This document shows, piece after piece, positions 57,059-62,149 of a DNA stretch of 64,000 nucleotides. Numbering within the stretch: position 1 is the first letter of the stretch; every line of letters begins with the position of its first letter. Location of the stretch: NCBI GenBank assembly GCA_964492735.1, contig CAZBLE010000002.1, forward strand, positions 135 to 64,134, written 5' to 3'. The notes beneath the pieces were generated by a model, which was given only the letters and a program-made list of their open reading frames with translations, had not been told where the DNA came from and ran no database searches. Position numbers and translations under genes: made by a program. Source of the DNA: an uncultured Gammaproteobacteria bacterium (GTDB taxonomy: Bacteria; Patescibacteriota; Patescibacteriia; UBA9570; XYC2-FULL-38-9).

Positions 57059-57097
57059 AAAAATCCCCATGAAAGGGGATTTTTGAATGAGTGTGAG
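57059..57097. repeat. Direct repeat copy 1 (most degenerate): terminator hairpin AAAAATCCCCatgaaaGGGGATTTTT plus gaatgagtgtgag
   Basis: Same hairpin and trailing sequence as at 61274-61318 and 62042-62082. Confidence 0.7.
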
Positions 57098-57201
57098 TTA
57101 TGTTATTAAAAATGTAACCAATTTTTTTTGAACTACAAAAATTTATTGTTATCCCTTCGCAGAAATCGCAATAACCTCTAAGTTTAGATTTATATGAATT
57201 C

Positions 57202-57678
57202 TTAGCCTTCAGTAATTATTTCAAGTGGTAATTCAGCTACCTTCTTATAGGTATTATTATTGTCAGTTTTTATTTTAATGAGAAATTTATATAATCCAAA
57301 CTCAGCAATTATCGGTAAGCCTTCTACTCTTGCGATAGTTCTGGTTCTATTTTTCTCGCTATCTACCTTGATGTCATTTGCCATTGTTGCAATGATTTTG
57401 CCCTTTGGGCTTACTATTTCAATTTTCATTTTTAAAGCAGTTGAGCTCCTCACTTTATTATGTAGCCAAGATGATACGATAGTAAATCGGATTGGAAGAA
57501 TTACTGGCTTTTCGACCGAGCTCTGCTTGATAATTTTTTGTAGATTATCATTGTTCTTGGTCTCTATAGTCAGTAACTCAAGTGCGTTGTGTAATGAAAT
57601 ATTATTTGTTCTGGAGTCTACAACTGCATCATCGCAAACTACAGACCAGATATGTTGAATGTTTAATGTGTTAGGCAT
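57202..57678 (-). CDS. Hypothetical 158-aa protein, third gene of an AT-rich (~30% GC) operon with the HigB-like/XRE pair
   Basis: Overlaps the upstream XRE gene by 8 nt. No motif recognised. Confidence 0.45.
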   Translation of the reverse strand: MPNTLNIQHIWSVVCDDAVVDSRTNNISLHNALELLTIETKNNDNLQKIIKQSSVEKPVILPIRFTIVSSWLHNKVRSSTALKMKIEIVSPKGKIIATMANDIKVDSEKNRTRTIARVEGLPIIAEFGLYKFLIKIKTDNNNTYKKVAELPLEIITEG

Positions 57679-58135
57679 ATTGATGGAATTTTACTTGCTC
57701 TTTATTTGTGTTTTCCGTTGAAATTTTTACTTTATTAACTACGGTCACGGGCTTGCGAAAAATAAAAATGTTATCAAGCTCTATGGTGTTTTCGTTAAGC
57801 TGTATTTTTGTTATTTTTTGAACTTCTAATTCATATCTAGATTCAATCTCGTCCATGAAAGCAAATTTTGGAGCGATAAGATACGTGTCTAATGCATTAG
57901 CTAATTTGACTAACGTGCTTATACTAGGGAGTGTGCTGCCGTTCTCTAGCCGTGCTATAGCTGGTTGTTTAGTGCCTAATATTCTCGCAATATCTTCTTG
58001 ACTGAGGTTTTTTATGATTCTGGCCTCTATTAACATTTCAGCGATTCTTCCGCTAATATCACGAGATCTTTGTATTACAACCTTATTATAGTCCTTACGA
58101 TTTTTTATCAATTGATTGAATGTAGGTAATTTCAT
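57671..58135 (-). CDS. XRE-family HTH protein with a ~90-aa C-terminal extension (HigA-like antitoxin candidate)
   Basis: LSQEDIARILGTKQPAIARLENGSTLPSISTLVKLANAL is an XRE HTH. Its start overlaps the upstream toxin-like gene stop (ATGA). Confidence 0.65.
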   Translation of the reverse strand: MKLPTFNQLIKNRKDYNKVVIQRSRDISGRIAEMLIEARIIKNLSQEDIARILGTKQPAIARLENGSTLPSISTLVKLANALDTYLIAPKFAFMDEIESRYELEVQKITKIQLNENTIELDNIFIFRKPVTVVNKVKISTENTNKEQVKFHQYA

Positions 58136-58491
58136 AGGTTTAAACTAGTAATTCTTTCAAATGCCTTATTATACTCTCGCTTTAATGAGTTTTTTCCCTT
58201 CTCAACATAAGCATGAACTATTATTATTTTATTTGGCCCATATGGATTTTCGTTAGTTGTAAATAATAGTCGGTATTGCTTTTTTTGAGGCCCACTAACC
58301 TTTATCTCATAAAGAGGTGGTTTTTTTGAGTATCCCGCAACTTTTTCGAAATACTTGCTTTGCAAACAGTTTCCTAGAGGGTGTGTTGCCAGCTGACGCA
58401 GGCAAGTATCGGTGAGCTTTACACTAACCTTAGTGTCCCATTTACAGATATCATTTACAACTGCATCTATTATTTCTATTTCCGCGTACAT
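58132..58491 (-). CDS. RelE/ParE-superfamily toxin candidate (HigB/Gp49-like)
   Basis: PLYEIKVSGPQKKQYRLLFTTNENPYGPNKIIIVHAYVEKGKNSLKREYNKAFERI resembles the Gp49/HigB core. Toxin upstream of an XRE antitoxin is the HigBA gene order. Confidence 0.55.
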   Translation of the reverse strand: MYAEIEIIDAVVNDICKWDTKVSVKLTDTCLRQLATHPLGNCLQSKYFEKVAGYSKKPPLYEIKVSGPQKKQYRLLFTTNENPYGPNKIIIVHAYVEKGKNSLKREYNKAFERITSLNL

Positions 58492-58513
58492 TTTTTGTTT
58501 GCTTCATATATAT

Positions 58514-58525
58514 AACAATATTGTT
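58514..58525. promoter_or_regulatory. Perfect 12-bp palindrome AACAATATTGTT in the promoter region of the HigB-like operon (candidate autoregulatory operator)
   Basis: It lies 23 nt upstream of the operon start codon and overlaps a TATAAT-like element. Confidence 0.4.
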
Positions 58526-58858
58526 ATAATAATGCAAGTGGGTAGATATTGTCAAATATTAATCCCAATAAACATTTCTTTGTTTCGATTCTAGTTTTTG
58601 ATATGCATTTCGAACAAAAACCTATCAAACAAAAATAATTTAAAGGCTCACCATATTTTTATAAAGAGTTTTTGGTTATTGTATTTGTGATAGGTGTTGT
58701 CAGTTTTGAGTGTAGAAAAAATAATATTTTTAGAATTAGAGTTTTGAAACGTGAGTAGGTCCTGACTCTCAAAAAGATAGAATAAATTATTATTCCGTGA
58801 GTTGTAAGCGTTAGTTAACATTTTGGCTAAATTTTCTAGTTGATATACACTTATTTTT

Positions 58859-61230: not shown

Positions 61231-61273
61231 AATACGAGTGTACTGAAAAGCAGCAAGCCGCGCAATCTGCTGA

Positions 61274-61318
61274 GAAAAAAATCCCCATGAAAGGGGATTT
61301 TAAAATGAGTGTGGACCC
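61274..61318. repeat. Direct repeat copy 2: terminator hairpin plus aaaatgagtgtggacc, which includes an 8-nt match to the tRNA-Ala 3' end
   Basis: AAAAAAATCCCCatgaaaGGGGATTTTaaaatgagTGTGGACC. Confidence 0.7.
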
Positions 61319-61412
61319 TGGCTTCCAAAGTGGAACGAATTCTTCTTTGAGCCGCAGCGACTGGCGGCCATTTTACGTAGTCAATACTTTGTAGTAAGCT
61401 CATGCGTATTAT

Positions 61413-62039
61413 ATGAAAAAACAATTCATACTTTTTGATTTTGATGGTGTCATTGCAGATACGCTTGATCTTGCATATGAAATTGAATTAAATCTCTGTC
61501 CTCAATTAAAACAAGAGGAATTCAGTCTGCGTTTTAATGGAAATATTAACGACTGGGAAGACCCCATCAATTACCATTCAGATGATTGTGATCATAATGC
61601 AATTGATTTTTGGAGTGAGTTGATTCCACGAATGCTCACTGAAACACAAATTTTTCCTGGCATGCAGAATGTCATTGCTCAACTTGAGCAACACTATACA
61701 CTTATTATTATTTCATCCTCAATCACGAGTCCAATACAGCAGTTTTTAGAAAAACATACATTTGGAAGTCATTTCGATTGGGTGATGGGAAACGATCTCC
61801 ATAAAAGCAAAGTTGAGAAGATAAAAATGGTATTTGATAAATACGACATTACCGCCGAACAGTGCATCTTTATTACGGATACGGTAGGTGATATGAAAGA
61901 AGCTAATAAGATGGACGTACCTGCAATTGCTGTAACTTGGGGATTTCAAAGCCGTGAAATGCTTGAGAAAGGGCCTTACACCCGAATTGTTGATCAACCT
62001 TCGGATATTTTGAAGGCCGTTGCGGAACGTTTTGCTTAA
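61413..62039 (+). CDS. HAD-superfamily hydrolase (phosphatase-like)
   Basis: ILFDFDGVIADT is HAD motif I (DxDG). The C-terminal region carries HAD motifs III/IV (Lys and GD.xxD). Confidence 0.7.
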   Translation: MKKQFILFDFDGVIADTLDLAYEIELNLCPQLKQEEFSLRFNGNINDWEDPINYHSDDCDHNAIDFWSELIPRMLTETQIFPGMQNVIAQLEQHYTLIIISSSITSPIQQFLEKHTFGSHFDWVMGNDLHKSKVEKIKMVFDKYDITAEQCIFITDTVGDMKEANKMDVPAIAVTWGFQSREMLEKGPYTRIVDQPSDILKAVAERFA

Positions 62040-62041
62040 AC

Positions 62042-62082
62042 AAAAATCCCCATGAAAGGGGACTTTAAAATGGTTGTGGACC
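62042..62082. repeat. Direct repeat copy 3 (master copy): terminator hairpin immediately downstream of, and overlapping, the tRNA-Ala 3' end
   Basis: AAAAATCCCCatgaaaGGGGACTTTaaaatggtTGTGGACC; it functions as the tRNA-Ala terminator. Confidence 0.7.
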
Positions 62083-62149
62083 TTACAGGACTCGAACCTG
62101 CCACCTCCTGCGTGCAAAGCAGGCGCTCTACCAGATGAGCTAAAGGCCC
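62077..62149 (-). tRNA. tRNA-Ala (anticodon UGC) with a G3:U70 identity pair; CCA not encoded
   Basis: Reverse complement: GGGCCTTTAGCTCATCTGGTAGAGCGCCTGCTTTGCACGCAGGAGGTGGCAGGTTCGAGTCCTGTAAGGTCCA. The anticodon stem CCTGC/GCAGG closes the loop TTTGCAC. Confidence 0.8.

Follow-up and report, generated by a model that had tools for sequence, protein, structure and literature searches.

Genomic islands integrated at tRNA genes (tDNA islands) are marked at their ends by the regenerated tDNA and by a displaced tDNA fragment, and tandem arrays of them occur (PMC4383910). Islets of <10 kb have also been described, which have direct-repeat flanks and lie at tRNA 3′ ends (PMC2704930). Phages of the mv4 type integrate right at the 3′ terminus of a tRNA gene (bioRxiv 10.1101/2023.11.06.565760). 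Here we analyze a 64 kb stretch of DNA (the window) from an uncultivated member of the Saccharimonadales (TM7) in the Candidate Phyla Radiation (CPR, or Patescibacteria), in which a repeat made up of the last ~6 nt of a tRNA, a 13-nt spacer and an intrinsic terminator occurs three times between tRNA-Ala(UGC) and tRNA-Ser(ACU). CPR bacteria have tiny genomes and few characterized mobile elements, and little is understood of how accessory genes are acquired. What we find is a tRNA-linked island array in a compact variant that lacks an integrase. The reading that we favor, and to which we give slightly better than an even chance, is an integration hotspot of the attachment (att) type which holds an array of relic or trans-mobilized cassettes between the two tRNA genes.

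Several features are the same as in tDNA islands and islets. The units lie at the 3′ end of a tRNA gene that is intact, they stand in tandem, the cargo deviates in composition, and it differs between relatives. As in the islands, the repeats are direct and oriented as the tRNA, the proximal copy completes the tRNA and a displaced copy marks the far end. In contrast to the islands, we found no integrase in any of the units, and with 0.76-1.8 kb these are far below the size of typical islands. The repeat measures 41-52 nt instead of the usual 16-20 bp, and its distal copies add an arm of ~40 nt. It contains 5-6 nt of the tRNA, whereas the fragment displaced by islands typically extends from the T-stem or the anticodon to the 3′ end. 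Since both the integrase and a substantial tDNA fragment are missing, we do not file the locus as a canonical tDNA island. It works like the tDNA islands.

The locus can also be compared with integron arrays. Both have small, ordered cassettes at a fixed point, each followed by a palindromic site, and in both the cargo is unrelated between relatives and includes a cassette of the toxin-antitoxin type. In contrast to integrons, no IntI or Phage_integrase-type domain was found in the scanned open reading frames (ORFs) of the window, the 24-nt hairpin has no R″/L″/L′/R′ boxes, and the cassettes, which differ in orientation, are equipped with promoters of their own. An integron attC site was considered and rejected, as the unit has a perfect stem of 9+9 bp with neither RYYYAAC nor GTTRRRY. 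Williams in 2002 reportedly distinguished a '3′-end' sublocation class of tRNA-gene integration sites. With this class and the mv4-type sites the locus shares a core that takes in just the last part of the tRNA gene together with the sequence downstream. Those elements, however, are complete phages or islands with their own integrase, whereas here neither an enzyme nor an attP was found.

Table 1. Features of the tRNA-Ala to tRNA-Ser interval, listed from the tRNA-Ala gene outward (window coordinates).
Feature	Position	Strand	Remarks
tRNA-Ala(UGC)	62076-62149	-	ARAGORN; Rfam tRNA 62077-62149, 65.9 bits
Proximal unit C	62031-62084	-	last nt of the tRNA, spacer CAACCATTTTAAA, hairpin 62043-62066, U-run
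HAD-family hydrolase, 208 aa (cargo of cassette 1)	61413-62039	+	Pfam HAD_2 7e-21
Distal unit B	61266-61358	-	arm 61318-61358; core 61266-61317 (GGTCCA, spacer CACTCATTTTAAA, hairpin 61278-61301, T-run)
438-aa HExxH (HELYH) protein	59914-61230	-	GC 0.424, native
344-aa HExxH (HEPSH) protein	58859-59893	+	no known family; GC 0.465, native
Unit X (candidate decayed fourth unit)	58706-58802	-	arm-like and core-like parts, hairpin lost; tRNA-proximal edge of the AT-rich block
AT-rich block	57100-58840	-	GC 0.32; three-gene operon, strain-variable
Distal unit A	57048-57139	-	arm 57100-57139; core 57048-57099 (AACTCA, spacer CACTCATTCAAAA, hairpin 57060-57083, T-run)
MFS (DHA3-like) gene	55680-56999	-	outer flank
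tRNA-Ser(ACU)	55537-55624	-	outer flank

Exact copies of the 20-mer AAAATCCCCATGAAAGGGGA are found at 57060, 61278 and 62043. No additional match appears in the window when up to three mismatches are allowed, and the expectation from dinucleotide shuffling is 0.00. The stem core CCCCATGAAAGGGG is likewise present three times in 64 kb and only at these sites. A repeat finder reports one family with three 50-nt copies, in which A is 72% and C 88% identical to B; over 41 nt the identity of B and C rises to 92.7%, and the cores of A and B differ at 2/37 positions (94.6% identity). The three copies are confined to the 5 kb downstream of tRNA-Ala(UGC), each in the orientation of the tRNA, and they flank the cargo as direct repeats. 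Thus, the hairpin unit seen three times by an earlier sequence-only reading of this DNA is real and correctly placed. Its length of ~40 bp has to be revised, because A and B measure ~93 nt, and the hairpin, described as perfect, has the shared stem but an imperfect A/T stem extension in copy C (GGGGACTTT).

A covariance model (R1) was built from three distal units, namely A, B and unit B′ of the relative L043, and was run without filters. L043, a JGI contig of 17.5 kb, is ~88-90% identical to the window at the nucleotide level in the genes that the two have in common. The model recovers B (103.5 bits) and A (98.9 bits) over their full length and C (48.5 bits) over model positions 40-93 only. 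That the proximal unit matches just the core half while the distal units match throughout supports an att-type origin. There is no further significant match in the window, and in L043 the model finds only B′ and the proximal unit C′. The sequence-only reading had named a common terminator scattered over unrelated loci as the result that would count against it. This dispersed pattern was not seen: the copy searches of the whole 64 kb window and of 17 kb of L043 gave three and two copies, all at the tRNA-Ala locus. The trailers of the other tRNAs in the window are unrelated to the tRNA-Ala unit. Among 185,579 species representatives no CPR genome carries the exact hairpin, and the JGI metagenomes gave 0 matches to the hairpin plus tail. 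The scan of the genome collection with the 20-mer returned 25 loci. We rejected the 24 matches in Chitinophagaceae (L002-L024, L026) as pure coincidence; they lie in frame within a SpoU-like, methyltransferase-like coding sequence (KIPMKGDF; peptide KIPMKGDFESLNVS) and swamp pattern scans of public genomes. The remaining match, in a Pukyongia metagenome-assembled genome, was set aside as an unrelated terminator.

The tRNA-Ala gene itself is intact, has the G3:U70 pair and encodes no CCA; the promoter scan places a promoter-like site at 62196-62168. Unit C lies directly at its 3′ end, as the sequence-only reading had stated for the rightmost copy. On the tRNA strand copy C reads ...AAGGTCCA followed by CAACCATTTTAAAGTCCCCTTTCATGGGGATTTTTG, which comprises the discriminator base, a trailer of 13 nt, a stem with a G+C core and a U-run. 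The computed RNA fold is a stem of 8-9 bp followed by UUUUU, and unit C is a standard intrinsic terminator. A consensus terminator scan missed it because the T-run is absorbed into the stem. The unit also flanks the convergent HAD gene on its 3′ side, and its position and spacer are kept in L043 (C′, 7264-7315). Together with the gene of a 75-aa membrane protein, tRNA-Ala and unit C form a conserved block of ~400 bp in variable surroundings. Beyond the 75-aa gene the neighbors are not the same (window 62402-62578, L043 6832-6946): the window and close relatives encode a 385-aa protein with an fn3 domain, and in L043 ribosomal protein L19 is found with tRNA-Leu and tRNA-Val.

The distal units differ from unit C by the arm, ~40 nt on the cargo side, which A and B have in common and which is missing from the tRNA-proximal copy. 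In unit B, window 61275-61352 aligns with L043 10070-10147 over 79 nt at 86% identity, an alignment which extends ~40 nt past the part common to the proximal copy, and in unit A, 57060-57137 is 75% identical to B′ over 80 nt (E 4e-5). When the cores are left out, the arms of A, B and B′ are still pairwise homologous (0/2000 dinucleotide shuffles for each pair). For unit B, the upstream sequence also recurs in another sample, by way of the N-terminal extension of protein P0244. With the 438-aa and HAD genes diverging on its two sides, B terminates no gene. A ends the operon of the AT-rich block, just upstream of the MFS promoter. The arm of A is AT-rich like the neighboring block and strongly diverged, while its core is nearly identical to that of B. 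Unit A is therefore a mosaic of a native-like core and a diverged AT-rich arm, and a crossover inside the core would yield such a structure. The spacer CACACTCA is common to A and B, and CACAACCA is found in C, C′ and B′.

The tRNA-derived nucleotides amount to GGTCCA in B and GTCCA in B′, and nothing of the tRNA is recognizable in A. The displaced fragments have the correct tRNA orientation, and the remainder of the repeat is trailer and terminator. For the middle copy eight tRNA nucleotides had been claimed; six of them stand (61312-61317), but the following CA is trailer, as the tRNA-Ala gene has no encoded CCA. Similarly, the proposal of integration into a tRNA 3′ end holds insofar as homologous copies of tRNA end and terminator bound the cargo. 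Because the tRNA-derived part is so short, however, integration into the tRNA is not supported, and we place it at the trailer and terminator.

On the side of the AT-rich block that faces the 344-aa gene lies a candidate for a fourth, decayed unit (X), in the place where a strict model of sequential integration predicts one. Its full-length match to the R1 model has 14.8 bits (E 1.3), and with nhmmer the best arm-type match is at 58742-58794 (E 1.9); neither value is significant window-wide. The position is suggestive, and we treat X as a lead only.

Comparison with relatives shows that the boundaries persist while the cargo changes. In L043 the order is tRNA-Ala, C′, a 282-aa protein, an aminotransferase, a HAD protein of 214 aa (HAD214), B′ (10064-10156) and tRNA-Ser. 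C′ has the trailer and stem of window copy C with a different loop, the distance from C′ to B′ is about 2.8 kb, and B′ directly adjoins the region upstream of tRNA-Ser. The 208-aa HAD hydrolase of the window (HAD208) is not in this slot, and HAD214 is unrelated to it beyond motif I. The same pair of proximal and distal boundaries thus holds different cargo in two lineages, and the earlier suggestion that the repeats bound variable cargo is borne out by the wholly different genes which the equivalent units bracket. Two independent contigs which are ~93-95% identical to the window, L027 (Logan ERR8482633) and L042 (ENA ERZ27283041), are without 57039-58837, that is, without unit A and the whole AT-rich operon. 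Position 57038 is joined to 58838 through a 46-nt filler, and the 344-aa gene stands directly beside the MFS gene. The breakpoint in L027 is 2 nt from the MFS promoter element TTGGCA (57036-57031). In L041, from another sample, the AT-rich operon is present with 100% identity; an apparent sequence variant there was dismissed as a run of N. The look at relatives that the sequence-only reading had advised thus yielded replaced cargo and a missing block, but no tRNA followed by a single unit without cargo. A metagenome scan with the tRNA-Ala body retrieved three loci of other CPR bacteria, with different acceptor stems, unrelated trailers and no empty sites.

The composition of the cargo was judged against 38 other ORFs of the window, which have a mean G+C content (GC) of 0.439 (sd 0.023, minimum 0.374). 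The HAD208 gene (GC 0.368) and the genes of the AT-rich block (0.34-0.36) are below this minimum; the 344-aa and 438-aa genes do not deviate, and both occur in relatives too. HAD208 is compositionally foreign. Its best homologues are <=59% identical, the named ones all belong to Parcubacteria-type CPR, with no Saccharimonadales among them; their gene contexts are unrelated and show no link to tRNA-Ala. The view of the 0.7-kb HAD islet as variable cargo fits this composition, the homologues in other CPR classes and the replacement of the gene in L043. The larger segment of 4.2 kb, in contrast, is not the single AT-rich islet that had been proposed, since only 57.0-58.8 kb is AT-rich. It is a composite of an ORFan pair with native GC and an AT-rich, strain-variable block of 1.74-1.8 kb.

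The operon of this block is preceded by a strong promoter-like site (58555-58526, promoter scan). Its first gene (58132-58491) encodes a 119-aa Gp49/HigB-like protein, the second (57671-58135) a 154-aa XRE-HTH protein (Pfam HTH_3 4e-14) and the third (57202-57678) an uncharacterized 158-aa protein; the first two overlap by 4 nt (58132-58135). The Gp49 match of the 119-aa protein is below threshold (0.004; 17.6 vs 23.9 bits). Its AlphaFold model, made from the single sequence and of low confidence (pLDDT 58), has a HigBA toxin as the top Foldseek match (prob 0.98, E 0.07). The model of the 158-aa protein is of low confidence as well (pLDDT 55), and a sequence search of the PDB gave two chance-level matches for the 119-aa protein and none for the 158-aa protein. 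We describe the pair as a candidate HigB/HigA-like toxin-antitoxin module, in which the HTH partner is firmly assigned and the toxin is a candidate judging from the sub-threshold Gp49 match and the modeled fold.

The 438-aa protein is a near-ORFan. A word-indexed search returned only the protein itself, 8 remote matches (E 2e-6 to 6e-4) were found among 1.84 billion representatives, and there was no match in Pfam, PADLOC or PHROGs. In front of its gene (61231-61275) a -10-like TATTAT appears to overlap the first ATG; NCBI starts the protein (P0245) at the second Met, and a leaderless mRNA is possible. The 344-aa and 438-aa genes are adjacent and convergent, neither product has a family match and both contain HExxH. 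They may be lineage-specific metalloproteases. The MFS gene on the outer flank has thousands of homologues. The closest named ones are from Candidatus Saccharimonadales, and unnamed ones reach 98%, 78% and then <=67% identity, from which we conclude that this TM7/CPR lineage is thinly sampled.

We suggest that the array could have been built in the following way. In this Saccharimonadales lineage, small cassettes would collect at a hotspot between tRNA-Ala(UGC) and tRNA-Ser. The attachment core would comprise the last ~6 nt of the tRNA, the 13-nt trailer and the terminator hairpin, in total ~45-50 nt, and not the tRNA body. Each insertion would rebuild the tRNA end and terminator beside the tRNA, which is now unit C, and the prior copy would be moved to the far side of the new cargo and remain as an attL-type scar (B and A). 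The arm of A, B and B′ would stem from a single family of inserting elements, as the att arm on the element side. Repeated use of the site could have led to the present array of tRNA-C, HAD, B, 438, 344, possibly X, AT-rich block, A and MFS. In unit A the arm may have been brought in by the foreign block, the terminator half being resident. Displaced terminators appear to have been reused. A would end the toxin-antitoxin-like operon and shield the MFS promoter, and B′ would end the aminotransferase-HAD operon in L043, while B may only insulate the promoter of the 438-aa gene from read-through. As no local recombinase was found, the cassettes are probably relics or were moved by an enzyme encoded elsewhere. 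Exchange between strains by homologous recombination, which is expected on top of this since Saccharibacteria are naturally competent, could then have reshuffled them.

Some observations weigh against an att-type hotspot. No recombinase domain was detected in the islet ORFs with Pfam, PADLOC, PHROGs and NCBIfam, and a Pfam search of the window ORFs of at least 150 aa and of every called gene of L043 gave no integrase, excisionase or transposase domain. The absence of an integrase noted by the sequence-only reading thus still holds for the ORFs scanned. In IMG/VR neither the unit nor the arm was found, and no free attP or circular form was seen. A phage origin of cargo and unit was considered, and nothing was found for it in IMG/VR or otherwise, so that a comparison of the cargo with phage protein sets, which had been recommended, gave no support. 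Two pattern matches in IMG/VR have no hairpin and no tRNA and were discarded as chance. The 5-6 duplicated nucleotides of the tRNA are far fewer than in the fragments mapped for tDNA islands (PMC4383910). Further, the outermost block is the most AT-rich and strain-variable one and looks youngest, the opposite of what an order with the oldest element outermost predicts. L027 and L042 hold the 46-nt filler instead of a single recombined unit, and the filler has no significant homology to unit A or X (weak resemblance to core A, p about 0.04-0.16). An empty site for the HAD islet was not found either; the contigs of close relatives break inside the tRNA. Finally, the cargo beside unit C shows no conserved second arm.

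The main rival is that the repeat is a portable terminator module of ~93 nt, locally duplicated by segmental duplication or gene conversion, and that its copies served merely as homology anchors for RecA-dependent exchange of cargo after natural transformation. We consider this unlikely, yet it ranks before the other alternatives. Natural competence and the integration of DNA by homologous recombination are known from Saccharibacteria (PMC10633639), and the lack of a nearby recombinase would be no difficulty. L027 and L042 resemble an allelic replacement, with 1.8 kb in one allele and the 46-nt filler in the other between conserved genes, and for this difference homologous exchange alone may account. 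The distribution of the two spacers over the copies is compatible with gene conversion within the genome, and neighbors such as the MFS gene relocate between relatives too. However, exchange of this kind leaves unaccounted for why the tRNA 3′ end is the exact start of the unit, with tRNA nucleotides included, why the arm is confined to the distal copies, and why in unit A a foreign AT-rich arm is joined to a native-like core. With 45-93 nt the anchors are also short for efficient homologous recombination. A variant closer to the att-type hotspot would take the 93-nt arm-core-hairpin as the recombination site of an undescribed cassette-capture system of CPR bacteria without an integrase in cis. 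Each cassette would bring along, besides the conserved arm, a sequence that mimics the tRNA-Ala terminator, and would be inserted and exchanged at terminator-type cores by an enzyme acting in trans, for example, a chromosomal Xer-like or a hairpin-recognizing recombinase, resulting in an integron-like array at a tRNA terminator. This we regard as rather improbable.

Two other explanations fare worse. The units could be a local cluster of a dispersed terminator family, similar to repetitive extragenic palindromic (REP) elements, with no causal tie to the tRNA or to insertion. The hairpin is indeed a good bidirectional intrinsic terminator, A and B′ do terminate operons, and for the source genome the search covers the 64-kb window only. 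But the remaining 59 kb with about 50 genes hold no copy, nor does L043 outside the two equivalent positions; the absence of the hairpin from the CPR representatives and the JGI metagenomes, the unrelated trailers of the other tRNAs, and a homology that reaches well past the hairpin also argue against such a family, which we think very improbable. Least probable, to our mind, is that the distal units are decayed tandem tRNA-Ala genes with their terminators, between which cargo was inserted later. The GGTCCA in tRNA orientation would fit, and in the MAFFT alignment the arm stands against the tRNA's T-arm region. The arms have no significant similarity to tRNA-Ala, however (453-1704 of 2000 shuffles score equally); Rfam gives no tRNA match at E<=10, and ARAGORN is silent down to a threshold of 70% and then makes inconsistent calls. 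Three independent arms are conserved among each other and not with the tRNA. On the results of Rfam, shuffling and ARAGORN we rejected a decayed-tRNA origin for unit B and the arms.

The locus is a concrete and repeatedly used entry point for accessory genes between tRNA-Ala and tRNA-Ser, with sequence-defined boundaries that persist as the cargo changes from strain to strain and from species to species. Should the arm be a true att arm, the 93-nt model would be a search handle for the elements and their recombinase and, as Saccharibacteria are now transformable, a potential landing pad for their genetics. If there was only homologous exchange around a duplicated terminator, the locus would be an ordinary hotspot of the flexible genome.

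Other parts of the window are rearranged as well. The MFS orthologue lies between DUF1801 and LDH in L028 and L043 (10783-12087) and between unit A and tRNA-Ser in the window, with the same MFS slot in L027 and L042; a second MFS gene of the window (54242-55513) occupies the other of these two positions. The Fic (42314-43228) and LDH (52831-53760) genes are adjacent in L043 and ~9.6 kb apart in the window. The intervening 43230-52830 encodes thioredoxin/DsbD-like proteins, HlyIII, HMA-DsbD_2, a copper P-type ATPase and a multicopper oxidase and looks like a second accessory island with copper and redox functions. The tRNA-Ser has the anticodon ACT in the loop TTACTAA and thus A34, which is unusual in bacteria outside tRNA-Arg(ACG); it is kept in L043 (10213-10302). 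A tRNA-Ile(TAT) is present in the window at 25872-25948.

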